Below, piece after piece: positions 3,175 through 33,085 of a stretch of DNA of 64,000 nucleotides (the stretch's first letter is position 1; each line of letters opens with the position of its first letter). The stretch comes from an uncultured Methanosarcinales archaeon (GTDB lineage Archaea > Nanobdellota > Nanobdellia > Woesearchaeales > 21-14-0-10-32-9), in assembly GCA_964548665.1 (NCBI GenBank), contig CAZJQL010000001.1:5462-69461 (forward strand), read 5' to 3'. Under the pieces are notes generated by a model, which was not told the origin of the DNA, did no database searches, and worked only from the letters and a program-made list of their open reading frames with translations. The position numbers were made by a program, and so were the translations under genes.

Positions 3175-4788
<1,614 letters not shown>

Positions 4789-4799
4789 TTTGCTTCACC

Positions 4800-12938: not shown

Positions 12939-12996
12939 AATTTATCTCTTATTTTGAATCCGCTCTGATTATTCATTTTAAATGATCATCTATTGC

Positions 12997-13114
12997 TATT
13001 CACGAATTTAACCATTCCAATCGCTACGTTGTTCTACGAGGGTGTTTATATAGGTATTTGAGCATCCCTCGACGTGAACATAGGAGGTAAACCACAATGG
13101 CAAAGAAAGCAGAC
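12997..13114 (+). promoter_or_regulatory. promoter/leader module copy B: TATA box tttatata (13045-13052), perfect 6-bp inverted repeat cgaggg(13037-42)/ccctcg(13066-71), SD, MAKKAD
   Basis: Direct repeat of 2861-2978. Confidence 0.55.
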
Positions 13115-13345
13115 AAATCGTTTTACACGTTAGCACAAAAAGTGCTCCAGGAACAAAACAAACCAATGCATTACGCAGACATAACAAAGGAGATCTTAAA
13201 GATCAAGGAAACCAAAGGCAAGACGCCAGAGCGAACAGTAATGGCAGTAATACTAAGAGACAAGCACAATATCTTTACAAGTGTAGGCGAGGGTATCTTT
13301 GGATTAAGCTCGTTTCAAAGTAGCCCAAAAGCTACCAAAGCTTAG
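13097..13345 (+). CDS. HARE-HTH domain protein (RpoE-delta/restriction-associated wHTH)
   Basis: 82 aa; the pattern A..VL......PMHY.DI...IL......GKTPE.TV.AVILRD...F..VGEGIFGL matches the HARE-HTH fold. Confidence 0.6.
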   Translation: MAKKADKSFYTLAQKVLQEQNKPMHYADITKEILKIKETKGKTPERTVMAVILRDKHNIFTSVGEGIFGLSSFQSSPKATKA

Positions 13346-13635
13346 AGAATTACGCTTGCCGCAACTATTCCTTTTTTGCTAAGGTGTGCAGAGAGCATTG
13401 AGTTAAACATTTTATTATGGCTAGAATATCTCAGATGTAAGAGTTCATGAACGATTACTTTGGATCTTGTCTGATAATTCTTATTGAGTAATGCGTATGA
13501 GAATGTGACTCTTCCCTTAGATGAACAGCTCGCCCATTTTCTACTCATTGCCCGTACATGAATTTCTTTAGGCTTCACCCCTATATCTTCTGCCCAATGC
13601 ATCACTTCTCTTTTGAAATCATTGACTGGAATCAT
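13342..13635 (-). CDS. DUF45/YgjP-like zinc metallohydrolase (short form), last gene of the Type I R-M operon
   Basis: SRKWASCSS...VIVHELLHL...HNKMF matches the DUF45 C-terminal catalytic half (HExxH). Start codon lies 2 bp past the hsdR stop. Confidence 0.65.
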   Translation of the reverse strand: MIPVNDFKREVMHWAEDIGVKPKEIHVRAMSRKWASCSSKGRVTFSYALLNKNYQTRSKVIVHELLHLRYSSHNKMFNSMLSAHLSKKGIVAASVIL

Positions 13636-16553: not shown

Positions 16554-17083
16554 TTCAAATCCCCTAATAATTTCTCCATCTCAAAAATGAAGTTTTTAGC
16601 TCTCTTCAAAGAAGTAATTGCTTTAGAATGCTTCTCGACAGCAGTTGTTTCATACTGAAGAATGCCTCTTTTATTCCTTTCCTGATCGAATTCCTCAATT
16701 AACGTATCTGCCTTGATTCCAGGAAGGGCTTCATTCTGCGCTTCTTCGTACTCTTCCAATAATCTCTTCTTAAGTTTATTTCTTACATGAACAATAAGCG
16801 CATCAGCTGTAACTTTGTGAGGTATCTTATCCCCTACTTTGTAGCCTATCTTGAATAAGACTGCATTGGCCATATAAAACATCGAGTAATATGATGTGAC
16901 AATAATCCACAAATCTGATTTCTTGTTCTTCGCTAGAAATTCAGCAATCTCAATGCTATCATTGGAATTATTCAATAAGACTGTGATAATTTCTTCCCTG
17001 AATTGATGCTTTTTTAGCATACCTGATTGCAAGTATTCTCGGACATTAGCTTCTGCTTCCTTTATTCTTTTATCATCAAGCAT
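16550..17083 (-). CDS. HEPN-domain protein (putative toxin/RNase) paired with MNT
   Basis: 177 aa; all-alpha HEPN-like core (YYSMFYMANAVLFKIGYKVGDKIPH...). 8-bp overlap with the upstream MNT and 4-bp overlap with hsdR. Confidence 0.55.
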   Translation of the reverse strand: MLDDKRIKEAEANVREYLQSGMLKKHQFREEIITVLLNNSNDSIEIAEFLAKNKKSDLWIIVTSYYSMFYMANAVLFKIGYKVGDKIPHKVTADALIVHVRNKLKKRLLEEYEEAQNEALPGIKADTLIEEFDQERNKRGILQYETTAVEKHSKAITSLKRAKNFIFEMEKLLGDLK

Positions 17084-17642
17084 TGTTCATCAACCTATAA
17101 TAATCCTCTACTCCAAAAAGCACAATATTATGTTTAACTGCTTCAGACACGACGGTAAATTCCTTTGATTTTAGCATTGATTCAAAATTCTCATAAGTAA
17201 TATGAGTTAAGTGAATATTAAGAGGAAGCAAATTAACCTGAGTCTCAATCTTTTTAGAATTACTCGATATAAGCAATAAATCAATATCTGAACCTTTGGT
17301 CTGTTGACCCTTAGAATAAGAACCAAATAATAGCAGAATAAACTGCTCATTAACCTTAGCTAACCGATTATATAATACAAGGAAATTCTTGTCTTTTAAG
17401 AGCTCTTGAAGCCTCGTAAATTCGACTTGAAATACAGAATCATTGAACTTATGATTAAAAGAGCAAATAGTGGTGTTCCCCTGTTTTTTAAGACTAACCA
17501 CGCCTTCTTTCGCAAGATCTTTAAGACTCGTATAAGCGGATTTATAATTGATTTGCCTCTGAATTCCAATCTGCCTAATGCTAAATACTTTCTCCTGATT
17601 CTCGATAAGCAACTTCAATATATTCAAACGTTCATTATCCAT
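17076..17642 (-). CDS. minimal nucleotidyltransferase (MNT) with N-terminal wHTH
   Basis: LLLFGSYSKGQQTKGSDIDLLLI is the pol-beta-type NTase GS...DxD motif; N-terminal wHTH. Confidence 0.7.
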   Translation of the reverse strand: MDNERLNILKLLIENQEKVFSIRQIGIQRQINYKSAYTSLKDLAKEGVVSLKKQGNTTICSFNHKFNDSVFQVEFTRLQELLKDKNFLVLYNRLAKVNEQFILLLFGSYSKGQQTKGSDIDLLLISSNSKKIETQVNLLPLNIHLTHITYENFESMLKSKEFTVVSEAVKHNIVLFGVEDYYRLMNNA

Positions 17643-17682
17643 TGTAACCCATACAACTATGGTTTAAACCCATATATAAACT

Positions 17683-18219
17683 TTACTGTTTACTTTCGTG
17701 ATGTTCTTCCTTTTTCTTCCGCTTAAGCTTCTTAACAATCCAATCAATCACATTCTTCTTAATATCGAAATTAAAGACAGAAGCACTGATTAAATCTCCA
17801 ATAATGATAAAGATAAGAAATATATTGACGATAAAAACAACTTGATAATTGAAATAAAGCTTATTGTAAATAGCTACATAATTATTGTTCACAGTATCAA
17901 ATTTCTGATTGAGAATAGCAACATCATACCTTGAAATGTTAATCTCCTGCTTAAGATCTTCAATATCTTTTTTAGTTACGTTCTCAGTTATGAGACGAGT
18001 ATATTCAGCCCTGCACTGCTGTACATTCTGATCTAATTGACTATTTTGTTGCTTAAGGCCACTAATTTCAGAATCCTTCTGACCAACTTGAGTAATATAA
18101 GGAGCACACTGAGAATCAGTAGCTATCTTAGACAAAGAAGTAAAGACAGGAATCATAGCTAAGATGAACATCAAAGCCAAAAAGCCACCGACAATAACAG
18201 CAACAGGTCCTTCAGCCAT
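17683..18219 (-). CDS. membrane protein: TM - coiled coil - TM, basic tail; unknown function, inside the R-M operon
   Basis: 178 aa; N-terminal TM (AVIVGGFLALMFILAMIPVF), about 90-aa Q/N-rich coiled coil, second TM, KR-rich C-terminus; 1-bp spacing to hsdS. Confidence 0.45.
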   Translation of the reverse strand: MAEGPVAVIVGGFLALMFILAMIPVFTSLSKIATDSQCAPYITQVGQKDSEISGLKQQNSQLDQNVQQCRAEYTRLITENVTKKDIEDLKQEINISRYDVAILNQKFDTVNNNYVAIYNKLYFNYQVVFIVNIFLIFIIIGDLISASVFNFDIKKNVIDWIVKKLKRKKKEEHHESKQ

Positions 18220-18220
18220 C

Positions 18221-19516
18221 TTAAACCACCAAATCCTTCACTCTGACTTTAGCAGTCATAAGATCACGAAGCATAGAATTAAAGAACTCCTCAAGAGAAG
18301 CTTTCTTACGTTCCTCTGCTATGATCTTATCATCTAAAGCAGATAGAATATCTGATATTTGAATTTGAATATTTTTTTGTGGAACACCAATTTCAATATT
18401 ATCAATCAAATCTTTATTCAATCCACTTCTGTCTTCATCTCCTGTAATATTTCTAATTTTATCATAAATATTAGACAAGGCATAATGTAAATACATATAA
18501 TCTACTGATTCATTTGGGATAATGCAAACAACAGATTGATTAGATGTGCAAGGTATCTCCAGTGGTGCTGTTGTTCCTCTTGTTTTTCCTCTGCCAGCTA
18601 ATGCAATAACCACTGATTTAGGAGGTAACCATTTGGCATTTGAATTTTCCAATCCTTTTTTTGAAATAAAAGTATTCATTGATGCAATCTTTCTGCCTTG
18701 AACTTCTCCTGATTTCATCCAGGGGATCTCGGCAGGTTCCCAATACTCTTTTATTTCAGTTTTGGGAGTGCCACCTGCTATTAATTTGGAAAAATTCTTG
18801 ATTTTAAGAATTTTCCATTCGGCAGGAATTTTACCGATATCTGTATCTCGAAGCGTTACAGATTCAGCTTCTTCAGGAGTGGCCATTCCATAAGTGAACA
18901 AATGCTTCATCATGGATTTCTTCAATTCAGACAGTGAACTAATCACAGAATCCGTTTTCTCTTTTGATTCAAGTATGGCTAACAATACTGACGCTATTTT
19001 CTTCTGCTCGTCAATTTGAGGCAATATTGTAAGAAAGTTCTCAACAATTCCTTTGTTAATATTTTTCTGTGTACTCTGAATATTATGCATTGCTAACTGA
19101 GGAGCTAAATATTTCAATACAAAAGCACCAAACTCTACATTTAATTTTTCGTTTGGAATTATAGCGAGAATTGCCTGATTTGTTGCTACAGGAATTTTAT
19201 TTATTGCAGTCTCTCCAATTGTCGCATACATACTTAACAATAATGAATTTGGCGGAACTATCCAAGCACTTGATTCGTCTAATCCCTTTTTTGTGATAGT
19301 TTCTTTTGTTTTATACAAATAAATTCCGCAAGAGGTCATATCCTCTATAAGAACAAAAGGAATATCTCCATTAAAGTATTCCTTATTGCCTCGTTTAGGT
19401 GTTCCACCTGACCGCATCTTAATGGCTAAATCCTTTATTCTAATAAGATTCCAGCTTTCAGGTATCTCTCCCATTTCTGTTTGTTTTGTTCTTTCAAGGA
19501 CAGTTATATTTTTCAT
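18221..19516 (-). CDS. hsdS: Type I R-M specificity subunit
   Basis: 431 aa; two TRDs separated and followed by conserved coiled-coil repeats (LP..DEQKKIA; AEERKK...LL). Confidence 0.85.
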   Translation of the reverse strand: MKNITVLERTKQTEMGEIPESWNLIRIKDLAIKMRSGGTPKRGNKEYFNGDIPFVLIEDMTSCGIYLYKTKETITKKGLDESSAWIVPPNSLLLSMYATIGETAINKIPVATNQAILAIIPNEKLNVEFGAFVLKYLAPQLAMHNIQSTQKNINKGIVENFLTILPQIDEQKKIASVLLAILESKEKTDSVISSLSELKKSMMKHLFTYGMATPEEAESVTLRDTDIGKIPAEWKILKIKNFSKLIAGGTPKTEIKEYWEPAEIPWMKSGEVQGRKIASMNTFISKKGLENSNAKWLPPKSVVIALAGRGKTRGTTAPLEIPCTSNQSVVCIIPNESVDYMYLHYALSNIYDKIRNITGDEDRSGLNKDLIDNIEIGVPQKNIQIQISDILSALDDKIIAEERKKASLEEFFNSMLRDLMTAKVRVKDLVV

Positions 19517-21267
19517 TTTGATTCCTCTAATAAGCTGATGGGTTTCTTTTGATATTTTTCTGCTTTCTTCAAGAATAGTTTTGCTTTGGAAGGCTCGTGC
19601 AATGGTTTAATTGCTGCAGCTTTTATTCTCCATGCATCGCTGTTCTTCTCATTAAATCTGATCACTGCGTCGGCATCTTCTATTGCTTTATTCCATTGAT
19701 GCGTATCCAGGAAAGCTCTTGCTCTGTCCAATAAGAATTCTTCTTTTCTCCAGAGTCTTAATGCCTTATCAAAGTAATTCAATGCTTCTTTTGGTTTCTT
19801 TTTAGCTAATAGCACAACTCCTTTTTTATTTAGTACATAAGCATTTTTTGGAAAGAAGGTGTAGGCCAAATCAATAATTTCTTCTGCTGTTTGTATATTA
19901 CCAGAGTTTAAGAAAACAACAGTCTTATTTGACCAACCTAATGAGAAATTCTTGTCTTTTTCTATTGTTTTCTCAAAACACTCCAGAGCTAAATTAAGAT
20001 ATTTTTCTGTATTTTGATATTTTGAATTCTTCTCGTAAATAACTCCCTTGTTGTTTATTGAATTGACATTATCTGGCTCTTTTTTCAGCAGTTCTTCATT
20101 TAGTTTAAAGGCGTTTTTGAGGTCGATAAGTTCAATGTAAACATCTACTTTTAGGCTCTGTAGAACTGCTGATTTATTTACGTGCTCTTCTTTCTCATCA
20201 AGGAATTTCAAAGCTTCTTCTGATCTATCTAATGCTTTTAGTATCTCTGTCTTTGTTTGAATAGCGACAATAAAGATAGGATCAACTTCTAAAGCCTTTT
20301 CTACATAAGGCAGTGCTTCTTCAGGTTCACCTTGCCTATTTAGATTATGAGCCTTATTGTTTAATGCAAATTTATGTTTGGCATCAATTTCAAGAACAGC
20401 ATCATAGCAGACGGTCGACTCGTCAACCTTATCTATTCTTTCAAGAATAAATCCTTTGTTCAATAGTGCTTCTGTATTTTTAGGTGTTATCTCAAGTGAT
20501 TTATCCAAAAACATTAATGCATCGTCTTCTTTTTGTAATGCGAAGAAGAACATGCTCATTTTGGAGTAAACTAAAGCCTTGAGATTTATCTCAGTATCTT
20601 TCATATTGATTAATGCATTCTTGAGCTCTTCAGCAACTTCATGAGGATTATTCAGATTAATAGTTTTTGTAGTATTGAATTGGAATTGAATACCAAATCT
20701 TTTTCCTAAATCAGTAGACTGTTGAATTGCTGTTTCTGGTTTCTTTATATCGATTAATGGCGGAACTTCCTCGTCAGGAAAATACGCTTTGCATATGTCT
20801 GGAATCTCAAAAAGAAGATCTAAGAACTTTGTTCCTGTCCAATCGTTTATTTCGCACCTGTTCTTTTTATTCCAATTATCCATATCATCTTTGCAGTCAG
20901 GGGTTGAATCGGAATTCGATAGTATAAAGAATCTTTTTATTCCTTGATCTTGGGCTTTTTGAACTTCTGTAGAAAATTGTTTAAAATTAACTCCTGCTTT
21001 TTGTCTCTTGCATTGAAACCAGCATTTCTCACGTTTTTCTTCTTTGGCAATTTTTACAATAAACTCGGCTTCTAAGTCTCTGCCACCATCTCCTCCTTTT
21101 CCTCGAGTAATTGGATTAATAAAGTTATTTCTCTTGATGATATCATAGCAAAGATTCTGGAAATCGTCAGGAGATAATTCATTGAGAAGTTTCTTCCATT
21201 CTTCTCTTTTTTTAATCTCTTTTTGCTTCATATTAACATAACCTCTCCACCCAGAATTTAGCTTCAC
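19513..21267 (-). CDS. Mrr_cat-type PD-(D/E)xK nuclease domain fused to a C-terminal TPR-repeat array
   Basis: N-terminal roughly 170 aa: RGKGGDGGRDLEAE...WFQCKRQ matches the Mrr catalytic core. The rest is about 400 aa of TPR-like repeats. Confidence 0.6.
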   Translation of the reverse strand: MKLNSGWRGYVNMKQKEIKKREEWKKLLNELSPDDFQNLCYDIIKRNNFINPITRGKGGDGGRDLEAEFIVKIAKEEKREKCWFQCKRQKAGVNFKQFSTEVQKAQDQGIKRFFILSNSDSTPDCKDDMDNWNKKNRCEINDWTGTKFLDLLFEIPDICKAYFPDEEVPPLIDIKKPETAIQQSTDLGKRFGIQFQFNTTKTINLNNPHEVAEELKNALINMKDTEINLKALVYSKMSMFFFALQKEDDALMFLDKSLEITPKNTEALLNKGFILERIDKVDESTVCYDAVLEIDAKHKFALNNKAHNLNRQGEPEEALPYVEKALEVDPIFIVAIQTKTEILKALDRSEEALKFLDEKEEHVNKSAVLQSLKVDVYIELIDLKNAFKLNEELLKKEPDNVNSINNKGVIYEKNSKYQNTEKYLNLALECFEKTIEKDKNFSLGWSNKTVVFLNSGNIQTAEEIIDLAYTFFPKNAYVLNKKGVVLLAKKKPKEALNYFDKALRLWRKEEFLLDRARAFLDTHQWNKAIEDADAVIRFNEKNSDAWRIKAAAIKPLHEPSKAKLFLKKAEKYQKKPISLLEESK

Positions 21268-22159
21268 TTATTAGTTGTTTTGAGATTTCTTCAGAATTAT
21301 CAAAATAAGACGATAAAGCTGTTGTAATATTGCTTAACATGGAATCAGTTGCCAAATCTTTTAATGAAGGATTCTTTAAGGTATCTTCTATTTTTTGTTG
21401 ATTATCATGTATTTTTTTAAGATCTTTATCATTCATAAATCGTGATGCCAGAAATCCTATGTCTCCTGCAATGATAGGATCGACAATAGAAATCTGGCTT
21501 AAGGCTAATGCTTCTGAAATAGTCTGTATTGAGAATATATCCTCTATTTCCAGAACTTCTCCTATCGTTTTGTAGTTAGTTTCATAATCATAATCCTTTT
21601 TCCAATAGATATTCTTTAGGTCAATAACTGCAAGAAGACTTATTATGCATTTAGCGTTTTGATATTTCGAATATATCTCTTTTTCAAACCACTCCTCAAG
21701 ATCTTTTCGTGTGCTTAGATTTTTCGGCACTTTAGATGGCGGAATTATGCTTAATGCTCCACCAAGATTCTTAGATCCATAATTTTTCTCTATTTCTGTC
21801 TTTATGAATTTGAAATTCTTGCCATCAACTTTCTGATTGGCATATTGAAAAATGATTATAGGAAGAGGTTTTGAATATTTTTTAACTAAATTCTCTTTAG
21901 ATATTCCTTTTCTTTTTAAGGAAGTTATGACATAGCTATAATCTTTTTCAGTCTTCTCTTTGTCACTCAATGCTTCCTCTATTTTTTTATTCTTCGTCTC
22001 TACATCTTGTTTAAGATTCCTATTTTCTTCAATTAATAAGTCAATAAAACTCTGGTTTTGTATTTCTTGTTTTTTCTTTTTACTAAAAATTGAGATAATC
22101 TTATCTAGGACTTTACTTACAAACCACCCTATTATTGATTCTAACCACATCCTATTCAA
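21233..22159 (-). CDS. hypothetical protein: N-terminal TM helix, coiled coil, unknown C-terminal domain; between hsdM and the Mrr-TPR gene
   Basis: 308 aa; overlaps hsdM by 8 bp and the downstream gene by 35 bp (operonic). Confidence 0.4.
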   Translation of the reverse strand: MNRMWLESIIGWFVSKVLDKIISIFSKKKKQEIQNQSFIDLLIEENRNLKQDVETKNKKIEEALSDKEKTEKDYSYVITSLKRKGISKENLVKKYSKPLPIIIFQYANQKVDGKNFKFIKTEIEKNYGSKNLGGALSIIPPSKVPKNLSTRKDLEEWFEKEIYSKYQNAKCIISLLAVIDLKNIYWKKDYDYETNYKTIGEVLEIEDIFSIQTISEALALSQISIVDPIIAGDIGFLASRFMNDKDLKKIHDNQQKIEDTLKNPSLKDLATDSMLSNITTALSSYFDNSEEISKQLISEAKFWVERLC

Positions 22160-23669
22160 ACCCCATCTGCTCTAGGATTTTCTTGAGTTTTTCGTCAGCT
22201 TGTTTTCTTTCTTCTTCTGCTTCTCTTAACTGAACATATGCATCTTCAAGATCAAGTGTTTCATCAGTGCCATTCTGTGCAACGTATCGTGATGGAGAAA
22301 GGTTGTAGTCGTTCTTTGTTATTTCTTCAGCAGTCACTATTTTGCTTACTCCTTCCTCTTCTTTCCATTTCAAGTAGATTGATGCAATCTTGTCTACTGC
22401 TGAATCTGGCATGAAATTCTTTGGCCTTCCTTTCTCAAATAGCTTAGAGCCATTAATCAATAGAACTTTATTCTTGTGTTTCTTATCTTTATTTATGATA
22501 AGAATTATTCCTGGAGCAGTTGTATTATAGAATAGGTTTTCAGGCAATAATAGAACGGCTTCAATTATATCTGCTTCTATGAACTTCTTTCTTATGTCTC
22601 TTTCTCTGTTTGATCCTGCATTTCCTGAGCCACGAGATACTGCCCCTGTGTCTAAGACTACTGCTATTCTTCCTTTATTCTTTAGGGAAGCGAGCATATG
22701 TTGGACCCAACCCCAGTCTGCACTTGACGTTGTTGGATATCCGTAAATGAATCTTCCATATGCATCATTTTCGTAAGTGCTTTGAGGAAAACTGTCTTGA
22801 TTCCACATTGGATTAGCAACGACAATATCGAATTTACGCAAGTGACTGTCTGCTGTTGTGAATGCTGGCCTATTCATTGTGTCGCCAAGAGCTATATCTG
22901 CTTCCATATCGTGAATAAATGCATTCATTTTAGCCATAGCATAAGTTGTATGTAGGCTTTCTTGACCAAAGAATTTCAATGGTTTTACTTTTGTGTTGTC
23001 TCCATGTTTCTCTCTGAATCTCAAGAAACTCTTAATCAATAGTCCGCCTGATCCTAAGCAGGGATCGTATATTTCCTCTCCTTCTTTTGGGTCGAGAATG
23101 TGTGCCATAAGTATTCCTACTTCTTTTGGCGTATAGAATTCTCCTGCACTTTGCCCTGATCCTTCTGCGAATTTTCTTAAGAGGTACTCGTATGCTCTTC
23201 CTATTAAGTCTGGCTCAACATCTTTCTGACCAAGCCTATGTTTGTTTAATGTATCAATTAATGCTTTGATTTTATCGTCTGTGATTATTCTTTGGCCTGC
23301 AGCTGTTGCGTTGAAATCAACTATGTCTATGACTCCTTGCAGTTTAGGGTTTTCTCTTGCTATTGCTCTGACTGCGTCAGTAAGGTATTCTCCGAGTCTT
23401 GTGCTTTGTTTTATTATGTTTGACCATCTTGCATTTTCAGGAAGATAGAATCTTACGAGTGTGTGATCTTCTTCAACGAATTCTTTTGCAGTCTTTATGT
23501 CTTCATATTCTTCTGATAATTTTTGTATTTCATCGTCGAATACATCGCCAAGTCTTTTCAAGAATATAAGTGGTAAGATATAGTCTTTGTATTTTGGTGC
23601 GTCTATTTCCCCTCTGATTTTACACGCTGCTTCCCAGAGCCATCCTTCGAGTGTTTTGATATCTAGCAT
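22152..23669 (-). CDS. hsdM: Type I R-M N6-adenine DNA methyltransferase subunit
   Basis: 505 aa; HsdM N-terminal domain, SAM-binding motif I, catalytic NPMW (motif IV). Confidence 0.9.
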   Translation of the reverse strand: MLDIKTLEGWLWEAACKIRGEIDAPKYKDYILPLIFLKRLGDVFDDEIQKLSEEYEDIKTAKEFVEEDHTLVRFYLPENARWSNIIKQSTRLGEYLTDAVRAIARENPKLQGVIDIVDFNATAAGQRIITDDKIKALIDTLNKHRLGQKDVEPDLIGRAYEYLLRKFAEGSGQSAGEFYTPKEVGILMAHILDPKEGEEIYDPCLGSGGLLIKSFLRFREKHGDNTKVKPLKFFGQESLHTTYAMAKMNAFIHDMEADIALGDTMNRPAFTTADSHLRKFDIVVANPMWNQDSFPQSTYENDAYGRFIYGYPTTSSADWGWVQHMLASLKNKGRIAVVLDTGAVSRGSGNAGSNRERDIRKKFIEADIIEAVLLLPENLFYNTTAPGIILIINKDKKHKNKVLLINGSKLFEKGRPKNFMPDSAVDKIASIYLKWKEEEGVSKIVTAEEITKNDYNLSPSRYVAQNGTDETLDLEDAYVQLREAEEERKQADEKLKKILEQMGFE

Positions 23670-23681
23670 TTTGATTTACCC

Positions 23682-23819
23682 CTATTTCTTTTTGCGAAGA
23701 TCTTCTTCCATGAGTTTTTCGAATTGTCTTGAAACTATCCATCCTTCTTTTTTACAGAGCTCTCTGTATTTCTCATATAATTCAGAGTTTACCTTCAACG
23801 TGATGTTCTTTGTACTCAT
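23682..23819 (-). CDS. ribbon-helix-helix (CopG/Arc-like) small DNA-binding protein, first gene of the R-M operon (candidate controller)
   Basis: 45 aa MSTKNITLKVNSELYEKYRELCKKEGWIVSRQFEKLMEEDLRKKK: beta-strand then two helices. GAGGGGG SD. Ends 12 bp before the hsdM ATG. Not in the ORF track. Confidence 0.5.
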   Translation of the reverse strand: MSTKNITLKVNSELYEKYRELCKKEGWIVSRQFEKLMEEDLRKKK

Positions 23820-23968
23820 AAAACAACCCCCTCACTGGACATTTACACGCACATACTTATAAATGTTGCTATCGTGTAGAACACATTTCAGAATAAGTCA
23901 GGATTTACTTACCAAAAAGTGTCAATATTTAAGAAAATTTATAGAAGTCATAAGCAAAACATAGGACT

Positions 23969-24460
23969 TTATTCTCTTTTAGGTCCTTTCATTATTGCAT
24001 TACACCCATCACAAACTGGGGCTTGCTTAATTGCTACACTGACTGGAATCAGTTCTCTTTTATTACACCTAACGCATAGGCGATTAATAAGCGATGGATC
24101 TGGAGATCTGCTTTTAGGGAATACCTCATTCATTAATTCAAACGCTTTATCTTTGAAGAATGCATTAAAGCTTGTATGTATGGTTTTTTGTGTTTTATAA
24201 TTGCTCATTGAATCGGTTAGGTTCAAACACATTGGCTTTTTCTCGGCATAGAGTTCTGGCCAGTTCTCACGAAATTTGACATCATCTTCAGCATAAAAGA
24301 CACGAATTAAATCGCTCTCTTTCAATTTTATCGCAGTAGTTTCATCAGTTTTTGATAAATCAATGATTTGCAAGACTGCAATCTCTTTGAATATATTCAA
24401 AACATATCTTATGTGTTCTTCGTTCTTCCCGCCAATAATGGTTATTTTCTCGCTTAACAT
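23969..24460 (-). CDS. hypothetical protein with C-terminal CxxC...CxxC zinc ribbon
   Basis: 163 aa; C-terminal CVRCN...CDGCN; 1-bp gap to the ligase gene. Confidence 0.4.
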   Translation of the reverse strand: MLSEKITIIGGKNEEHIRYVLNIFKEIAVLQIIDLSKTDETTAIKLKESDLIRVFYAEDDVKFRENWPELYAEKKPMCLNLTDSMSNYKTQKTIHTSFNAFFKDKAFELMNEVFPKSRSPDPSLINRLCVRCNKRELIPVSVAIKQAPVCDGCNAIMKGPKRE

Positions 24461-24461
24461 T

Positions 24462-25259
24462 TTATTTGTCCTCCCTCACTCTTATTATTCTCGGAAATCT
24501 TAGTTTCTCAAAATCTCCTTTATTGAAAGATAGCTCAATTGTTGAGCCTATAGAATAATCTGCAGAGCTCATCACAGTCCCTGTTTTCTCGTTTTCTGAA
24601 ATATACTTGTAAACCCATGCTTTGTTGTCTTTTGTCTGTTTTTTCTCTATGATCTTGACGTCAATTGTTCGAATGGGTTTCATTTTAATCCAATTGAAGC
24701 GAGAATTTGGCTTGTAGCTTTCAAGATTCTTTATTACAATACCTTCAAATCCCGATTCTATAAGTTTCTTGTAAAGTCTTTCAACGTCGACGATTGTATT
24801 TGTAAATGTGTTTGGAACAATGTTTAAGCTATCATTCTCCTGGACAAAGAAATTGATGTGCTGTCTTCTTGTTACATAATCGGATTCAATCAAGCTGTTG
24901 CTATCAACTTCTAAGATGTCAAAAACAAAGAAGACAAATCTTTCATCGGAAAACAATTCTTTGGCAATTGCACGATGAGAACCTACAACTTTTCCTTTCT
25001 TTAATACGGCCATTTCACCATCAAGAATAATTCTTTCTGGAAGTATCCCCTTTCTAAGATCTTCTGCAATGGACTTATATCTGCTTGAATAATCCTTGCC
25101 ATTACGTGTAATGAGCTTTATTTCTGTTCCATTCTTTTCAAGAAGAATCCTTACCCCATCTATCTTAGGCTCTAAAGCAACAGCATCATTATTGTAGATA
25201 AAAGTTTCCACCTCTCCCTCTCCAACAAGCTGTGGCTTAAAGCTCGTCACATTTATCAT
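24462..25259 (-). CDS. minimal ATP-dependent DNA ligase (NTase + compact OB, 265 aa)
   Basis: Motif I EPKIDGVR, III LDGEMAV, IV EGIVIK, V WIKMKP, VI RFPRIIRVREDK; no DNA-binding N-terminal domain. Confidence 0.8.
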   Translation of the reverse strand: MINVTSFKPQLVGEGEVETFIYNNDAVALEPKIDGVRILLEKNGTEIKLITRNGKDYSSRYKSIAEDLRKGILPERIILDGEMAVLKKGKVVGSHRAIAKELFSDERFVFFVFDILEVDSNSLIESDYVTRRQHINFFVQENDSLNIVPNTFTNTIVDVERLYKKLIESGFEGIVIKNLESYKPNSRFNWIKMKPIRTIDVKIIEKKQTKDNKAWVYKYISENEKTGTVMSSADYSIGSTIELSFNKGDFEKLRFPRIIRVREDK

Positions 25260-25596
25260 CCTTCCTTACCTCCGACAAATCTGCATTTAATCTCTTGATG
25301 ACCCAACATCCTTGACCTTTAGAACTATGAGAACTCTTGAAGTATACCGCGAGAAGAGGAACAATATTGAACTCAATAGCCTTCTCAATTATTCCATGAA
25401 GGCCAGTCATTCTATAAACTACTTCTCGAGTACTTTTGACTTCCACCAAGAAAACCTCTTTTTTAGAGAATAATACTGCATCGCAGACAGAATATTGCCT
25501 TCTACCAGAAGCTGCAACTCTTTCTGTATGATATCCTTTATCTTTCATCATGTTGCAGAAGTCCCGTTCATATTGGAGATGACTTTTCAATCTCAT
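25237..25596 (-). CDS. hjc: Holliday junction resolvase Hjc (archaeal PD-(D/E)xK)
   Basis: 119 aa; GYHTERVAASG...CDAVLF...LVEVKST matches the Hjc E-D-E-K catalytic arrangement. Confidence 0.75.
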   Translation of the reverse strand: MRLKSHLQYERDFCNMMKDKGYHTERVAASGRRQYSVCDAVLFSKKEVFLVEVKSTREVVYRMTGLHGIIEKAIEFNIVPLLAVYFKSSHSSKGQGCWVIKRLNADLSEVRKDDKCDEL

Positions 25597-27115
25597 CAGA
25601 GATCACCTCCAATTCTTGCTCTGCAATCTCGCCAATCAGTTTAGCAATAGAAGATTTTCCGAGAACAACATCTTCGTGGCCTTTGTATTTTTCAAAGAGT
25701 TCTGTAAATCTTCTGAGTCTATCAAGCTCTAAATCCTTGTCAAACTTTATTCCTGCCTTATTGCAGAATGCTCTAAGAATATCAACTTTCTTCATCCATA
25801 AACAAAGAACACCTGCATGTTTTGCCCATTCGAAAAGCTGTTGTCCATTTGGATGATTCATAATCAAAACAGGCATTAATCTATGAGTTCCTGGAATAGG
25901 TTTCATGTCAAGAGATCTTCCATGAGACAAGCATCCAATCATAGAAGTGATGTATTTCTTTCCTGCACTTCCGAGATATTTTCCTTTCTTATCCCTCTTG
26001 ATTGAAACAGCAAATCCAAATATAGGAACTTTCAGCAATTGATCATAACAGAAAATCAAATAGTCTATTGGCTCAGAATCAAACCTCCAAACATCAACAA
26101 GCCTCTGCTCTTTCTCATTAGTATATCTCTTAATGTCGTTTGGATTAAACCAAGAAGGAATCCTCTTTGGAAAGTCCTTATTGAGTCGAATCTGCAGATT
26201 ATATCTCGAGATGAGATACATTACAAAGTAGAATATGGCTTGTTCTTCGAATCCATTTCCGAGAGTGGTCACATCCAATATACTTTTTACAACTTCTTCC
26301 TTATGCAGTTTAGGAGCCTGTTCGAGAACATAACTTTCAGGCATTGTTCTGTTGAAATAGTATCTTCTCTGCTTGAATGATACAACCTTAATCCAGCCGA
26401 CGCTGATAAACCTTACATCAAACCAACTTTTTATATCGCCATTAGTTACTTTGAATCGGTCCTTCATCATGTCAATATTATAGATATCATTGGACTGAGA
26501 AATGAGCAGGAAAGCACTTCTTACCTCTTTAGGCATAAGCTTCAAGATCTTATTATAGATGGCCAAATCATCTTTTCCGTAGACGTAGCCTGGTTTTCTG
26601 CCATGAATCATAGCATTGCCTGGCATCATAAAAGGACTTCTTTTGATGAGCTGCAACCTGATAAGATCATTCAGGCAGAAGTAAACATGATCATAATTCC
26701 CGTATTCCTTATAATACTCTTTTTCCCTCAATAAATAGAGAACTTCAGCAGTCGTATAGCCTTCTTCTGAAGACATCAACGCATCAAAGATTTCTTTTTT
26801 AATGCCTTGCAAGAACTCTTTCTCATCAGTTTTGCTATTTAGCTTCTGAATCTTCTGGTTGATATCATCCTGGCTCATGCCGTAAACAAAGACAGAACTG
26901 CACTTCCTGGCACTGCTCTGAGCCTTTTTCCTGCTCTTGATGATAAGATTGCCCTGCATGATCTGACGCAGGTAAGAAGAGATGTGGCAGTACCTGATGC
27001 CTCTGTCTTTGAAGGCGTCAAAAATCTCTTTTGTAGTAACTGCCCGTCTTTCCGTTATGAACTTATAAATCTGGAAAGTGATACTATTTTTGTCAAAAGT
27101 GATTTTATCGGCCAA
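25568..27115 (-). CDS. hypothetical 515-aa protein with two N-terminal winged-helix-like domains; candidate replication/initiator-type protein of unknown family
   Basis: No Walker A/B seen. 29-bp overlap with hjc (operonic). Confidence 0.35.
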   Translation of the reverse strand: MADKITFDKNSITFQIYKFITERRAVTTKEIFDAFKDRGIRYCHISSYLRQIMQGNLIIKSRKKAQSSARKCSSVFVYGMSQDDINQKIQKLNSKTDEKEFLQGIKKEIFDALMSSEEGYTTAEVLYLLREKEYYKEYGNYDHVYFCLNDLIRLQLIKRSPFMMPGNAMIHGRKPGYVYGKDDLAIYNKILKLMPKEVRSAFLLISQSNDIYNIDMMKDRFKVTNGDIKSWFDVRFISVGWIKVVSFKQRRYYFNRTMPESYVLEQAPKLHKEEVVKSILDVTTLGNGFEEQAIFYFVMYLISRYNLQIRLNKDFPKRIPSWFNPNDIKRYTNEKEQRLVDVWRFDSEPIDYLIFCYDQLLKVPIFGFAVSIKRDKKGKYLGSAGKKYITSMIGCLSHGRSLDMKPIPGTHRLMPVLIMNHPNGQQLFEWAKHAGVLCLWMKKVDILRAFCNKAGIKFDKDLELDRLRRFTELFEKYKGHEDVVLGKSSIAKLIGEIAEQELEVISDEIEKSSPI

Positions 27116-27244
27116 CGTCTATACCTCCAGAATTAGTAAGGAATAACCAATATAAAGCCCTAATTGGTAAGAAATATAGTAAGCTTAGTAAGAAAAGAAT
27201 AGAAAAAGAATTATAACAGGAAAACGCCCTAAATACCGAAGTAT

Positions 27245-27982
27245 TTAATCGTTATCGACTCTTGGTGCTAATATGAATTGTAGGCTTAACTTATCTTTTT
27301 CTAGGTATTCCAGAATTAAAGGATAGTCGTTGCTGAATTTTATTGTTGCTTTTGTTGCTAATTTTGATCCTTGCATCATTTTTTTTAGGTATTCTATTGA
27401 GTATTTGGATTTTTGTGTTGCTTCTGTTTCTATTTTCACTTGTTCATCTGGTTTTATTATTACTTCTGCTCTGTTTAGATCGCCTATCGAGGATATTATT
27501 AAAGATTCTTTGTCTGATTGTAGTATTACGCTTTCACCTACTATGTCCATGTCTTCTATTGCTTCGTTTAGAGTTGAGGACAATAGTTCTATTTTTGCTT
27601 TGGTTGTTAGTTGGGGTATTCTTTGTTGTCTTTCCTCTAAGTCTATTAGTGGAAGATAGAATGTTCTTGTTGTTTTTTCTTTCATAACTATTTTTAATTT
27701 ATTTTCTGTTTTTTCTATTGTGAGTTTGTCTGTAGGTTTTGTTCTTCTTAGTACTTGTTTTAGGTTATCTAGGTTTATTGCTATTGTTGTGTCTTCTTTT
27801 AATTCATATTCTGAGAACATTGTTGCTGGCATTTTGAATATTACCATTGCAACATTTGCAGGATCCATTGCGATTATTTCTATTTGATCTGGCGTTATTT
27901 TGAATTTTGTTTCTTTTACTAATTCGGAGATTATTGCTATGCTTTCTTTTAGAAATTTTGGTTCTGATAGGGTTAATTTCAT
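27245..27982 (-). CDS. pcn: PCNA sliding clamp
   Basis: 245 aa, two-domain PCNA pattern; N-terminal MKLTLSEPKFLKESIAIISELVKETKFKITPDQIEI. Confidence 0.8.
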   Translation of the reverse strand: MKLTLSEPKFLKESIAIISELVKETKFKITPDQIEIIAMDPANVAMVIFKMPATMFSEYELKEDTTIAINLDNLKQVLRRTKPTDKLTIEKTENKLKIVMKEKTTRTFYLPLIDLEERQQRIPQLTTKAKIELLSSTLNEAIEDMDIVGESVILQSDKESLIISSIGDLNRAEVIIKPDEQVKIETEATQKSKYSIEYLKKMMQGSKLATKATIKFSNDYPLILEYLEKDKLSLQFILAPRVDND

Positions 27983-28043
27983 TTATATCCTCCCTTTTTC
28001 TCTTGAAAAGGAACTTTATTTATATAGTTTTCTTTGATTTCGT

Positions 28044-30830
28044 TTAAAAACCCATCGAGCTGAATAAGTCGGGTTCTGTTTGAAAAGGATCTGCGTCATA
28101 CATTATTTTTAGTGCGGTTCTTTGTTTTTCAGTTATTTTTCTTTTTTCAGTTTCGCTTAGCTTGGTGTATTGTTGTCTGAAGTCATCTATGCCCAATATT
28201 TTTCCTTCAAAAAAGCTTTTGAAAGCTTGTTTTATGAGAGGAATTTTTGGTTTTTGTATGTTTTGGTAGATTTCATATTCTCTGTCGGCAAATATGACTC
28301 CTGCAAACCAATCTTTGTAAGCTACCGCGTTTACTTTTCCAAAATTTATTGCTTCAGAGACAGGATTATTTTCTGATATTATAAATGTGTTTGCTCTGAT
28401 TGCAGGGTTTGCTTTATTTATTTCTTTTAGTTTTTCTTTTAGCTGTTTGCTTTTTTCTGGTATTATTACATTTAAGTTTATTCCGTGCGGTGATTTGATG
28501 AAATAGAATTTTGCTCCATATTGCATAGAAAATATTATGTTTGCTTGATTAAATTCTTCATCTGAAAGAAAATCTATTATGTTTTCTTCTAGTTTCAATC
28601 CGGTTAACTGAGAAGAATTATAGCTTGGTTTTTGTTTGAATATTTTTTGAGCATCTTCTGACGAGAATTTCCAAAAGTTGTATATTTTGTCCAAGTCATA
28701 ATTTTCCCCGAATCTTAGATTTTTAGCTTCCATGTATGTTCTTGCTTTATCTACAGGTATTTGAAGATGATACTCTAGTATTGATAGCAAACTTTCTTTT
28801 ATTAGTAAATTAGTTTCTTTTTTCGATGATTCAAAAATATATTTAGCTACAGCGTTATTTTCTATGGTTTCCCCGAATACATCTAGGATTATTGTAGGAT
28901 ATTGTAAAATTCCTTGTATTTTTCCAGGCTTATAATCTGAATATTTGAAAAGAGAGTTTGTTGTTTCTGTTATTGTTTTTCTATTTTTTAGTCTTTCCAT
29001 GAATCTTTTAAAATTTTGTTCGTGTCTTTTTGAGTATGTTCCTGTCATAATCTCGTAATTTCTATCTCCTGCTTCGTAATGAAGCATGACCGGGTCTGTG
29101 TTAAACACCGTATTTAATGGTTTGTTGACGAGCATGGCTTCCAGAATTGAGTTTCTTAAAAGCAAGTTTGTAGCTTCAGAGCTTTTCTCACCATCTTCCA
29201 AGGTATAATTACAAACTTCTATGAAATTTTCAAATTTGCCTGATTTTATTTTATCATTTATTTCTTGATAAGATAATGATTTTTTGAATCCTGCCAATGT
29301 TGATAATTTAGAGTCTCCGAGAAGAGTTATTCTGTTTTTTGAATAACAATAAGTATCTAGTATTTCTTGCGCGGTTCTTGACCATATTCTCTGAGATTTT
29401 TTTATGCCGTGTTTTATTTTAAAATCATGCAGATCATTTGTTGAGTTTGAATTTTTTTCTTTGTCGAATTTGGTTAGATGTTCTAAATCGTAATCTAAAA
29501 TGTTGTGGCCTAGTATGAATCTGTATTTTTGTGAGTCTTGATTTAATCTCATGACTAACTCAACTTCGTTTTCAACAAAGACAAATTCTATGTTTTTTTC
29601 TGAGAATCTTTGAATTGCTTTTTCTTTCCAAGATTCATTTCTCCATGCTTCTTTAGACACATATAGTTTTTTTTCATTTTTTGAGTCTAGAACAGCCATG
29701 TATATTCTTCCTGACGGAATGTTATTATTATAATCTATAACTTCTAAGTCTATAGAACAGCAGTTTTCCATGAAAACCGAATGTATTTCTTCTAATTTTT
29801 TTTCTATAGAGTCGAACATTATAGGATTTTTTCTCATATTTATTTGTTGAACTAGTTCTTTTTCTGAGTCAAAAACTGTAAATATTGGAAATTTGTTTCT
29901 TAATTGATTTGTTGGGCTATTTAATGTAAATGGATCTTGAAGTGCTTGTCTTGGAAGGAGAGCGGGTTTTCCTGTTTGCGTAGATATTTTTAATATATTG
30001 TATTTTTTTAATTCTTGTTGAACTTCCACTTCATCAGTTGCAGACATCAATATTTTGTATTGCTTGACTTTTCTCTTGTCTAGAGTTTCTACCACCGTAA
30101 ATTTGTCCACTTTTCTTGGAAATGGAAAATTCTCTAATTCTTTTATTAAACGTTCTAAGTCTTTAGCATTTTGTATTTGTTCTGATTCATATCTTTGAAG
30201 TCTAAATTCGTTTAAATCCAAAAACTTCATGTTTTTGTTTTCTGTTCTTATTTCTATTATGTGTCCATCATCTTTCTTCTTTAGACTTATATCCTCTTCA
30301 GGAATAAAACTTGATAAAACAGTTACGTAATTATTATACGCGAGTTTAGCTTCTTCTTCATCTTTGAAAACTATTGATCTTGCTAATGCACTTTTTTCTG
30401 TGTTTGTTATGAATAAAGGATTTTTTTTGGGACCGAATGTGAAGTCTAATTTTTTTCTTAGAGCTCTGTCTTTCATTCTGGCACGTATAATGTAACTATT
30501 ATTTTCATCTATGTTTTCTAATAATTGAAAGTCATTATTTGTTAAAAAATATATTTTGTCTTCTGCAAACACAATTTCTTTTTCTGGAAAAGTTTTTCCC
30601 CCGCCATATCTGTTAACCGAGAAATTGACTTCAGGATATTCTTTTTCTAATTTTTTTATTGTTTCTTGAAGCGAACCGTGTTTTTTTGGTATGAATTCTC
30701 TTGAAGGAACTTCATGGTCGCTAGCCATCTCTGTTTCTAGAAATTGTTTAGTTTCTGTATCTACGTATTCTACAATTACTTTGTTTCCACTAAGTCCTTT
30801 TGGTTTGACTTGGTAAAATAGCTTAACCAT
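28044..30830 (-). CDS. family B DNA polymerase homologue with apparently inactivated polymerase active site (exonuclease motifs retained)
   Basis: Exo I SIDLEV, Exo II GHNILDYDLEHL. Motif A-like ILQYPTII (D>Q), motif B-like YNSS, motif C-like MQYGAKF (DTD lost). Spacing follows canonical PolB order. Confidence 0.55.
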   Translation of the reverse strand: MVKLFYQVKPKGLSGNKVIVEYVDTETKQFLETEMASDHEVPSREFIPKKHGSLQETIKKLEKEYPEVNFSVNRYGGGKTFPEKEIVFAEDKIYFLTNNDFQLLENIDENNSYIIRARMKDRALRKKLDFTFGPKKNPLFITNTEKSALARSIVFKDEEEAKLAYNNYVTVLSSFIPEEDISLKKKDDGHIIEIRTENKNMKFLDLNEFRLQRYESEQIQNAKDLERLIKELENFPFPRKVDKFTVVETLDKRKVKQYKILMSATDEVEVQQELKKYNILKISTQTGKPALLPRQALQDPFTLNSPTNQLRNKFPIFTVFDSEKELVQQINMRKNPIMFDSIEKKLEEIHSVFMENCCSIDLEVIDYNNNIPSGRIYMAVLDSKNEKKLYVSKEAWRNESWKEKAIQRFSEKNIEFVFVENEVELVMRLNQDSQKYRFILGHNILDYDLEHLTKFDKEKNSNSTNDLHDFKIKHGIKKSQRIWSRTAQEILDTYCYSKNRITLLGDSKLSTLAGFKKSLSYQEINDKIKSGKFENFIEVCNYTLEDGEKSSEATNLLLRNSILEAMLVNKPLNTVFNTDPVMLHYEAGDRNYEIMTGTYSKRHEQNFKRFMERLKNRKTITETTNSLFKYSDYKPGKIQGILQYPTIILDVFGETIENNAVAKYIFESSKKETNLLIKESLLSILEYHLQIPVDKARTYMEAKNLRFGENYDLDKIYNFWKFSSEDAQKIFKQKPSYNSSQLTGLKLEENIIDFLSDEEFNQANIIFSMQYGAKFYFIKSPHGINLNVIIPEKSKQLKEKLKEINKANPAIRANTFIISENNPVSEAINFGKVNAVAYKDWFAGVIFADREYEIYQNIQKPKIPLIKQAFKSFFEGKILGIDDFRQQYTKLSETEKRKITEKQRTALKIMYDADPFQTEPDLFSSMGF

Positions 30831-32257: not shown

Positions 32258-33085
32258 TTATTTATAGCTTTGCAAATATTCTTCTTTTAGATTTTTAAAA
32301 GTGAAGTAAAAATTTGTTCCGACTGAAGGAGTAGATTCAAAAGATAAGTTTCCTCCAAGCAATCTGGACAAGTCTCTTGATATTTTTAAGCCTATTCCTT
32401 TAGAAGTTATTCTATCGGGATTTTCTTTCAGCAAATAATCTTCTTGTTTAAGTTTTTGTTGTATTTCTTCACTAATTCCTAGTCCGTTGTCTTTTACAAA
32501 TCCTTGATATAAGATTCCTTCAGATGTATAAAGCATTTTTATTCCTAATTCTATTTTGTCTTTTGTAAAATCATTTGCATTTGCTGCTAAATTATAGAAT
32601 AGTCTCATCAGTTTTGTTTTGTCGGTATATATTAAATCATGTTCTTTCCCATAATTTTCGGAAGGTAGATGTGTTTTTATTATATTTACAAATTTTTTTG
32701 AACTTGAAGATGCATTATTTATACCAACATATTCTGAGACTTCATCAACGACATCATTTAGGTGTGTTTGCGATATTTTAAGTTTATTTTTGCCTTCTGC
32801 AGATTCTGCCATCTCTGCAAAATCTTGAGTCATAAAATCTAAATACCGTGCCGCTTTCATAATTATTGCAGAGTATTTTATTATTTCTTCAGAACTCACA
32901 GTTTCACCATTTTTTAAAGCAAATCCTGTTTCTTGTATAATTTCTGCAAAGTTTTGTATCGGCATCAGAGGTTTTCTTAAATCATGTAACAAATCTGAGA
33001 CGTCTTGCAAAGAAACACAGGATTTTAAGAGACTTAATACTTCAGAATCAGCTTTTTTCATATCATTATTAGCTCCGACAACCAT
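32258..33085 (-). CDS. sensorless histidine kinase (HisKA + HATPase_c)
   Basis: H-box LHDLRKPL, N-box NLAANANDF, G-boxes DNGLGI/GIGLKI; no TM or sensor domain; no REC gene nearby. Confidence 0.7.
   Translation of the reverse strand: MVVGANNDMKKADSEVLSLLKSCVSLQDVSDLLHDLRKPLMPIQNFAEIIQETGFALKNGETVSSEEIIKYSAIIMKAARYLDFMTQDFAEMAESAEGKNKLKISQTHLNDVVDEVSEYVGINNASSSSKKFVNIIKTHLPSENYGKEHDLIYTDKTKLMRLFYNLAANANDFTKDKIELGIKMLYTSEGILYQGFVKDNGLGISEEIQQKLKQEDYLLKENPDRITSKGIGLKISRDLSRLLGGNLSFESTPSVGTNFYFTFKNLKEEYLQSYK

Follow-up and report, generated by a model that had tools for sequence, protein, structure and literature searches.

Background

The 'immigration control region' of Escherichia coli and the defence-island hot spots of bacterial genomes consist of conserved flanks between which restriction or other defence cassettes are interchangeable and differ by strain. 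Nucleases of the PD-(D/E)xK type are also known from mobile DNA, e.g. TnsA of Tn7 and homing endonucleases such as I-Ssp6803I. Here we report on a 64-kb stretch of DNA (64,000 nucleotides of contig CAZJQL010000001.1, referred to as the window), which is part of a Woesearchaeota (DPANN) chromosome and in which six co-oriented minus-strand genes encode, in this order, a zinc-ribbon protein (ZnR), a minimal ATP-dependent DNA ligase, a Hjc-type Holliday junction resolvase, a 515-aa protein, the PCNA sliding clamp and a 928-aa protein derived from family B DNA polymerases (PolB). The six genes constitute two unrelated units that abut, i.e. an inherited gene pair (PCNA and the PolB-like gene) and a horizontally travelling island. 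On balance we favour the reading that the region is the junction between this core pair and a mobile defence island whose arm is its own DNA-handling machinery. All homologues with a named source are from Woesearchaeota, and the window also encodes SecY, a run of short open reading frames (ORFs), a thermosome and RNase J.

As in the immigration control region and the bacterial hot spots, different systems are found at one place between conserved flanks; here, however, the flank has itself been transferred between distant hosts, and in it the place of ordinary housekeeping genes is taken by those for a nuclease-like protein, a resolvase and a ligase. Like TnsA and I-Ssp6803I, the protein encoded at the edge of the segment, which is without tyrosine, serine or DDE recombinase, has a restriction-endonuclease fold (here as modelled). 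It differs from them in that there is neither a TnsB-like partner nor an intron or intein context, and in that the putative nuclease carries three fused winged helices and its gene is coupled to those of Hjc and a ligase.

In the survey of PolB diversity by Kazlauskas et al. (2020, PMC7544198), groups B7 and B9 are recorded for Woesearchaeota. The survey also covers inactivated PolB paralogues, i.e. the C-terminal half of Pol epsilon and the archaeal PolB2 group, and its entry for the latter states that Exo I is not conserved and that Exo III is missing (PMC7544198). As for the 928-aa protein, a PolB homologue is kept in these cases without a canonical polymerase site, presumably in another replisome role. 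In contrast to the PolB2 group the 928-aa family keeps the full DEDDy exonuclease site, and it differs from the inactivated paralogues in that its polymerase half is unrecognisable by profile methods, its gene is paired with PCNA and there is no direct PolB Pfam match for the family. A term search of the survey (PMC7544198) turned up no exonuclease-only form of PolB.

Results and discussion

Two units with different histories

An initial annotation of the window had read the six genes as one DNA-transaction module, possibly a replication module from a mobile element. All six ORFs are present at the positions it gave (Table 1), and among the gene overlaps those of 23 nt (ligase/Hjc) and 29 nt (Hjc/515-aa gene) were correct, whereas the 1-bp overlap given for ZnR and the ligase gene is a 1-nt gap (24461). 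As a single module the six genes could not be upheld, since their identities to one related locus (L011; related loci are denoted by L and a number) fall into incongruent classes and since PCNA and the PolB-like gene are syntenic in relatives without the island.

Twelve genes between 27.2 and 41 kb of the window are collinear with those of the relatives L001 and L003, where the gene order HisK - RNase J - PolB-like - PCNA is found at the same position and where the identities to the window are 83-84% for RNase J, 86% for PCNA and 50-51% for the PolB-like protein. The synteny with both relatives stops at the PCNA stop codon, which is followed by unrelated genes, and none of the genes at 1-27 kb of the window are present at that place in L001 or L003. 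The PolB-like gene is located immediately before PCNA in six lineages (the window, L001, L003, L006, L011 and L034) and the pairing persists to approximately 20% identity (L034); in L035 the PolB-like gene is not adjacent to PCNA. The clamp itself was correctly identified in the initial annotation, as it carries both PCNA domains and scores 117.1 bits with the TIGR00590 model (cut-off 99.1). Together, these comparisons indicate that PCNA and the PolB-like gene have long been paired in this Woesearchaeota lineage and have been inherited vertically. Orthologues in syntenic positions, which the initial annotation had considered as a sign of a core replisome and as speaking against a mobile origin, are found for these two genes and not for the other four.

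With respect to L001 and L003, the PolB-like protein diverges faster than its neighbours RNase J and PCNA. Other fast neighbours in the same comparison are a sensor kinase (only 40%) and a 562-aa ORF (31-47%, partial alignments). In L011, two genes encoding an unassigned 318-aa protein and an M3 peptidase are located between RNase J and the PolB-like gene (2089-4886).

The island spans approximately 14 kb (~12973-27244), from the PCNA stop codon to a far-end piece with a HARE-HTH gene. The local order PolB-like - PCNA - 515-aa gene - Hjc - ligase - ZnR is the same in L011; however, protein identity between the window and L011 is 52% for RNase J, 53% for PCNA and 31-32% for the PolB-like protein, whereas it is 95.5% for the 515-aa protein, 91% for Hjc, 82% for the ligase, 81% for ZnR and 89% for the far-end HARE-HTH protein. 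Third-codon-position identities follow the same division, with 42, 41 and 40% for the three backbone genes (RNase J, PCNA and PolB-like) and 68, 78, 63 and 66% for the four arm genes (515-aa gene, Hjc, ligase and ZnR). High DNA identity begins at the PCNA stop codon and includes the 129-nt spacer before the 515-aa gene, which is 95% identical to that of L011 and 88-95% identical across the window, L011 and L015, i.e. on three backbones whose adjoining PCNA proteins are only 53-65% identical. The spacer holds a hairpin (AAATAC-TTCG-GTATTT) right after the PCNA stop codon, a T-rich tract, the TATA-like sequence TTTATATT and a GGAGGT motif before the TTG start of the 515-aa gene.

The GC content is 0.366 and 0.302 on the two sides of ~27.2 kb, between the 515-aa gene and PCNA. 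Because the GC content of the arm (~0.35-0.37 across loci) is higher than that of the adjoining backbones (0.28-0.32), the composition step is placed at 27.2 kb; the breaks suggested initially at ~13 kb and ~31 kb did not appear, as there is no step at 13 kb and the other is displaced. At the far end, the conserved piece comprises a promoter/leader element and the gene of an 82-aa HARE-HTH protein, and is 76% identical at the DNA level to L011, where the gene is annotated as PF05066.

The segment is thus missing after PCNA in L001 and L003 and is incongruent with the backbone where it is present, and both observations indicate an island that is horizontally exchanged between distant hosts and forms a composite with the core pair. 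The suspicion of a mobile element therefore holds for ZnR, ligase, Hjc and the 515-aa gene with the adjacent defence operon, and not for PCNA and the PolB-like gene.

That all six genes represent one virus- or plasmid-derived DNA-transaction module with its own clamp and a dead polymerase is scarcely credible in view of these data. The genes are indeed co-oriented and tightly packed, the size of the ligase is like that of minimal phage ligases (with 27% identity to those of SPO1-like phages), and Hjc and ligase genes do occur in viruses, as seen from PHROG matches. However, the PCNA/PolB-like pair is syntenic, vertical and present without the other four genes, which in turn occur without the pair, the identities to L011 are incongruent (31-53% vs 81-96%) and the 515-aa protein is missing from IMG/VR and from phage and plasmid collections. 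Nor were genes for capsid, terminase or replication initiators detected, with the PHROG matches being limited to the ligase and Hjc, and the absence of integrase and capsid genes noted initially was confirmed in our searches of the window. A replication module is not indicated either, since the arm, with its nuclease-like protein, resolvase and ligase, lacks genes for a primase, a helicase and an initiator ATPase. No integrase or transposase gene (tyrosine, serine or DDE type) was found among the ORFs of the window island or in the annotated flanks of nine other loci, and there is no tRNA gene in the window or beside the corresponding genes in 19 loci.

We also noted a 94-nt direct repeat, with two copies that are 92.6% identical and located 10.1 kb apart, which holds a TATA-like box, a GGAGGT motif and the start of an ORF beginning with MAKKAD. 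The second copy drives the HARE-HTH gene and the first a 51-aa ORF. L011 carries the element too, and its contig stops just past it, as assemblies do at repeats. The repeat could represent a promoter used in common or a trace left by a former island end; as the ends of the present island the two copies were rejected, since they bracket the wrong segment (chaperone and Bat-like genes). Outside the island, a 514-aa ORF without Pfam family ends a MoxR - DUF58 - VWA/BatA operon.

The 515-Hjc-ligase trio in Woesearchaeota

The 515-aa, Hjc and ligase genes (the trio) were found in approximately 20 Woesearchaeota loci, adjacent in this order in each and usually overlapping, with the 515-aa gene at the outer end of the arm in every case. 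GCA_021734105.1, GCA_053533315.1 and GCA_038868995.1 are among the assemblies with the trio. In L032 (620-3337), at 29-31% identity, a 515-like gene comes first, the ligase gene second and Hjc last, and an SMC/AAA_23-type ATPase gene lies behind them; the order is altered while the three genes are the same, and the linkage of the three is therefore older than their order. Comparing 515-aa protein, Hjc and ligase in turn, the identities are 51, 87 and 46% between the window and L018, 85, 64 and 73% between the window and L015, and 82, 74 and 95% between L012 and L020, which indicates that the trio genes have mosaic histories. The genes before the 515-aa gene vary: PCNA is found in three loci, and elsewhere NUDIX, Na/H exchanger, YjbQ, RNase T-like or UbiA genes.

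In 11 distinct loci (L007, L008, L009, L012, L013, L017, L018, L020, L024, L026 and L027), the point from which the islands resemble each other is a box, TTAGTCNTATTCAA, located 124-142 nt before the start of the 515-aa gene; approximately four matches would be expected by chance in all 454 kb searched. Nothing is conserved upstream of the box, and the PCNA-type junction bears a variant of it at equal distance. No second copy, inverted or direct, is present in the available flanks and far ends. The box may represent the terminus of the element, a recognition site of the 515-aa protein or an operator, for all of which it is a candidate. Upstream of the trio in L007 (1-2141), the gene for the ribonucleotide reductase large subunit holds an intein with a LAGLIDADG endonuclease.

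The distribution of the trio bears on whether it could be a housekeeping operon that happens to lie by a hot spot, i.e. encode the sole cellular ligase and Hjc together with a lineage-specific recombination factor (the 515-aa protein), with defence genes accumulating next to it and the whole locus occasionally being replaced by homologous recombination. DPANN genomes are reduced, the 64-kb window has no second gene for a ligase, Hjc, PCNA or PolB, and the trio lies beside PCNA on three backbones and is under strong purifying selection (compared with L011, the 515-aa gene has 95.5% protein vs 87% DNA identity), all of which would agree with such a role. Yet the closest relatives with respect to the backbone, L001 (a 538-kb contig of ERZ23510489) and L003, are without the trio after PCNA, it occupies differing places in different genomes, its third-position and non-coding identities are far above those of core genes, and the family has few members and little depth (~25 clusters at 90% identity). 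We therefore regard the housekeeping operon as improbable.

The 515-aa family has no match in IMG/VR, INPHARED or PLSDB, and a viral or plasmid origin of the protein was rejected on these grounds.

Defence cargo between common arms

The cargo has been swapped between common arms: the window carries a type I restriction-modification (R-M) operon with inserts (13632-23669, minus strand; Table 1), while the slot between the near-identical arms of L011 is occupied by DpnII R-M genes and two methyltransferase genes. More generally, R-M or other defence genes follow the ligase gene in nine of the 12 distinct loci with enough sequence. These include type I, MmeI-like, MvaI/BcnI, DpnII and ResIII plus DUF2779 systems, TIR/SEFIR and SLATT genes and a QueC/TGT set, often together with RadC.

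The association with DNA-cutting cargo suggests another role for the trio, that of a repair companion which mends the breaks made when R-M cargo arrives in an unmethylated host or misfires. The nuclease-like protein would process ends, Hjc would resolve and the ligase would reseal cohesive ends, making the island tolerable in repair-poor DPANN cells. DNA-cutting defence or R-M genes in nine of the 12 loci, intact catalytic motifs in ligase and Hjc, and RadC directly after the arm in L012, L017 and L018 are consistent with this possibility; RadC often accompanies incoming DNA. However, it leaves unexplained why the 515-aa gene is outermost and why conservation runs from a fixed upstream box, three loci hold the trio without R-M genes, and no known R-M or defence model in PADLOC includes the trio proteins. 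A companion of this kind seems unlikely to us, although less so than a housekeeping operon.

Among the PADLOC models there was no match for the 515-aa protein, the ligase or ZnR, and Hjc matched only PDC-M29B (E=0.004). This also speaks against the trio itself being a defence system, in which a sensor/effector with three winged helices and a nuclease domain would cut DNA that is foreign or modified, much as Mrr or type IV enzymes do, while Hjc and the ligase would limit self-damage. We know of no precedent for a ligase as a defence component, which counts against such a system as well, and the position at the edge together with the conserved box suits an element terminus better. A defence function of the trio is accordingly highly improbable.

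Within the window cargo, a small overlapping pair at 16550-17642 (the MNT and PDC-M05B-like genes) resembles a toxin-antitoxin pair of the MNT/HEPN-like type. The DpnII endonuclease gene of L011 (11902-12818) is in two pieces encoding 242 aa and 49 aa, and is probably frameshifted or inactivated. The cargo of L012 / L028 (8352-14834) includes QueC and a TGT-like protein, which together point to a 7-deazaguanine DNA-modification system, along with RadC, a ThsB-like TIR protein, an Ogg-HhH glycosylase-like protein, a SLATT protein and type I R-M.

Table 1. Positions of the genes and other features of the window discussed in the text
Feature	Position	Strand	Assignment or remark
94-nt repeat, first copy	2861-2954	plus	
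51-aa ORF	2961-3113		
514-aa ORF	9979-11523	plus	
Far-end conserved piece of island	12973-13345	plus	
94-nt repeat, second copy	12997-13090	plus	
HARE-HTH protein, 82 aa	13097-13345	plus	
HsdR	13632-16553	minus	Pfam/PADLOC
PDC-M05B-like protein, 177 aa	between HsdR and MNT gene	minus	PADLOC
MNT nucleotidyltransferase	17076-17642	minus	PF18765/PF01909, PADLOC PDC-M05A
178-aa protein	between MNT gene and HsdS	minus	
HsdS	18221-19516	minus	Pfam/PADLOC
Mrr_cat-TPR fusion, 584 aa	19513-21267	minus	PADLOC PDC-M58A, E=8.5e-9
308-aa protein without family	21233-22159	minus	between hsdS and hsdM
HsdM	22152-23669	minus	Pfam/PADLOC
ZnR protein, 163 aa	23969-24460	minus	ORF
Minimal ATP-dependent DNA ligase, 265 aa	24462-25259	minus	PF01068
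Hjc-type Holliday junction resolvase, 119 aa	25237-25596	minus	PF01870
515-aa protein, TTG start	25568-27115	minus	three winged helices and nuclease-like domain, as modelled
Non-coding spacer, 129 nt, PCNA-side island edge	27116-27244	minus	
PCNA sliding clamp, 245 aa, core gene	27245-27982	minus	TIGR00590, PF00705, PF02747
PolB-derived protein, 928 aa, core gene	28044-30830	minus	family-profile match to PolB exonuclease domain
Sensor kinase	32258-33085		
562-aa ORF	36553-38241		

Proteins encoded by the arm

Archaeal replicative ligases of the Lig1 type have an N-terminal DNA-binding domain and a full-length OB domain and comprise ~550-600 aa. The ligase of the window, which was correctly recognised in the initial annotation (PF01068, E=3e-34), is not of this type: it is matched over the adenylation domain only and scores 107 with TIGR00574 (cut-off 218). 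It consists of an adenylation domain and a short OB-like tail with motif VI, and motifs I, III, IIIa, IV, V and VI including the catalytic lysine are all present, with residues K32-x-D34-G35-x-R37, D80-G81-E82, F111/F113/D114, E172-G173/K177, W190/K192/K194 and R260/R262 invariant in 13 homologues. It shares this architecture, i.e. adenylation domain, short OB-type tail, six motifs and no N-terminal DNA-binding domain, with the minimal ligases of Chlorella virus (298 aa), bacteria (Lig E) and SPO1-like phages, the last being of comparable size, and with 265 aa it ranks among the smallest ligases. The identity to the phage enzymes is nevertheless only ~27%, and the best PDB matches by sequence are the adenylation domains of archaeal replicative ligases (2cfm and 3rr5, E=9e-22). 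The protein belongs to a separate family (264-278 aa in 26 homologue clusters, the first 22 at 44-98% identity) that is so far named only in Woesearchaeota.

The Hjc assignment was likewise confirmed (PF01870, E=1.4e-9, 38.2 bits with a cut-off of 21.1), and the catalytic tetrad E10, D39, E52 and K54 is invariant in 13 loci. Since the score with the NCBIfam equivalog is 25 and hence below the cut-off of 70, we consider the protein to be a divergent member.

For the 515-aa protein, the initial annotation had proposed a double winged helix. It was modelled instead (pLDDT 75) as three winged helices (residues ~10-80, 100-180 and 195-255) and a C-terminal PD-(D/E)xK-like domain, i.e. an alpha-beta-beta-beta-alpha-beta domain of the restriction-endonuclease type, and the Foldseek matches of the model include tandem winged-helix proteins and BstEII. 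Candidate active-site residues are E290, P349-x-D351 and S371-x-K373 (invariant), with D341 and D375; enzymes of the Cfr10I type are known to have SxK in place of (D/E)xK. No match was found in Pfam, NCBIfam or PHROG, and none of significance in PDB by sequence or family profile. Based on the model, the assignment to the nucleases is moderately secure, and we infer a nuclease activity from it only, because it has no support at the sequence level.

ZnR has an N-terminal domain with a WPE[LF]YAEKKP motif and a C-terminal CxxC...CxxC zinc ribbon, and there is no family match for it in Pfam, NCBIfam, PHROG or PADLOC. In the window and L011 it is added to the arm as a fourth, accessory gene; in L018 and L019 its two halves are encoded by separate ORFs after the ligase gene, and the other loci lack it.

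A PolB-derived protein next to PCNA

The 928-aa protein comprises an N-terminal part of ~350 aa without assignment, an exonuclease domain (~355-570) and a C-terminal part of ~370 aa. By itself the protein has no match in Pfam, NCBIfam, PHROG, PADLOC or PDB, and a word-indexed search gave only two close relatives. An exhaustive profile search, however, recovered 34 representatives among 1.84e9 proteins, and two remote members of the family pass the Pfam threshold for the PolB exonuclease (PF03104). A family profile of 29 sequences matched the exonuclease domains of the Pfu, KOD and Tgo polymerases (E=1.4e-10, Pfu PolB 138-357) and, in an hhalign comparison, residues 151-372 of E. coli Pol II (E=4e-8). 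The DEDDy residues are invariant or nearly so across the 29 sequences: D361/E363 in Exo I (DxE), D448 in Exo II (NxxxFD) and Y542/D546 in Exo III (YxxxD). Other invariant or near-invariant positions are only a few structural ones between the Exo motifs, and no acidic residue beyond D546 is conserved across the family.

The C-terminal half has no match to PF00136 or PDB (hhalign E=0.3), and the aspartates of polymerase motifs A (DxxSLYPS) and C (DTD) were not recovered. The description of the protein as a catalytically degenerate PolB is therefore supported at the level of the family, with respect to both its PolB kinship and the absence of a conserved polymerase site. The more specific statement that the aspartates are replaced cannot be made for individual residues, since there is no polymerase domain to which the C-terminal 370 aa can be aligned. 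An AlphaFold2 prediction from a three-sequence alignment was unusable (pLDDT 41).

The protein ends in LF, as do 16 of the 29 members, eight of which end in QxxLF as in the clamp-binding QLGLF of E. coli Pol II, which has relatives in Woesearchaeota and Pacearchaeota (group B7). By eye, some members also have 'GIYDGVL..YPS', resembling 'GLYDSVLVLDYKSLYPS' of Pol II minus the segment with the catalytic aspartate. Beyond the exonuclease domain, however, the family has no statistical similarity to Pol II, and the best PDB matches are PolB enzymes of Thermococcales.

Because conservation is limited to the Exo motifs, the tail ends in LF and the gene lies before PCNA, we infer that the 928-aa protein descends from PolB and is an exonuclease associated with PCNA, its polymerase half having decayed or been replaced. 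It would be tethered to PCNA and act in proofreading in trans or in the processing of 3' ends, and not as a polymerase.

A possible route of island exchange

The island consists of a fixed arm with the translationally coupled 515-aa, Hjc and ligase genes (and ZnR in the present case), a replaceable middle with defence genes and a far end with the HARE-HTH gene. We suggest the trio as the machinery for insertion or exchange because there is no recombinase, because the gene for the winged-helix nuclease-like protein is outermost and because a fixed box lies beside it. Recognition of DNA would fall to the winged helices of the 515-aa protein, which would make its cut either at the target or at the edge of the island; the joints formed by recombination would be resolved by Hjc and sealed by the ligase. 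In this way the island could be inserted, or its cassettes exchanged, in hosts whose repair repertoire is minimal. A stronger form, in which the trio is a self-sufficient, integrase-free mobility machine whose 515-aa protein opens a specific site (here the 3' end of PCNA) and whose own resolvase and ligase finish the insertion, so that defence islands are spread among DPANN archaea in which much of the common recombination machinery is missing, is put forward tentatively and may well be incorrect.

Several points weigh against the overall interpretation. The far boundary of the island is fixed only to within ~30 nt, since L011 ends there, and around 12.9-27.3 kb we found no convincing pair of terminal repeats or target-site duplications, only short AT-rich chance matches. 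Three of the 12 loci (L016, L026 and L030) are without obvious defence cargo. The 265-aa ligase and Hjc may be the only copies in these cells, in which case the trio would be housekeeping as well as mobile, and its recurrence at the 3' end of PCNA could be due to homologous replacement of an older island and not to site-specific insertion. Finally, the C-terminal fold of the 928-aa protein is without a usable model, and the protein may be a very divergent active polymerase.

Conclusions

The superfamilies of the individual enzymes are known, as are defence islands with swappable cassettes. What appears to be new is an arm that has no integrase but a winged-helix nuclease-like protein, a minimal ligase and Hjc in its stead, the recurrence of this arm at the 3' end of PCNA on three diverged backbones, and a PolB descendant that is paired with PCNA and keeps only the proofreading site. 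Neither the trio nor the 928-aa family is covered in Pfam, NCBIfam, PHROGs or PADLOC, and no published description of the trio, of such DPANN islands or of the 928-aa family was found in the literature searched. The locus also illustrates that co-oriented and tightly packed genes can have quite different histories, which here were exposed only by comparing related loci.

DPANN archaea are tiny, symbiotic cells with stripped-down repair, and how defence systems are exchanged among them is poorly known. If our interpretation is correct, an island in which a nuclease-like protein, a resolvase and a ligase are the only constants would represent a new way of moving DNA, with the arm as a compact set of enzymes that cut, resolve and seal. 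Likewise, the PolB-like protein would represent a new fate for a replicative polymerase, i.e. a descendant of PolB that keeps the proofreading site alone and is still tied to PCNA, and the family would then bear on how the replisome is rebuilt in reduced archaea, in parallel with the dead PolB module of eukaryotic Pol epsilon.

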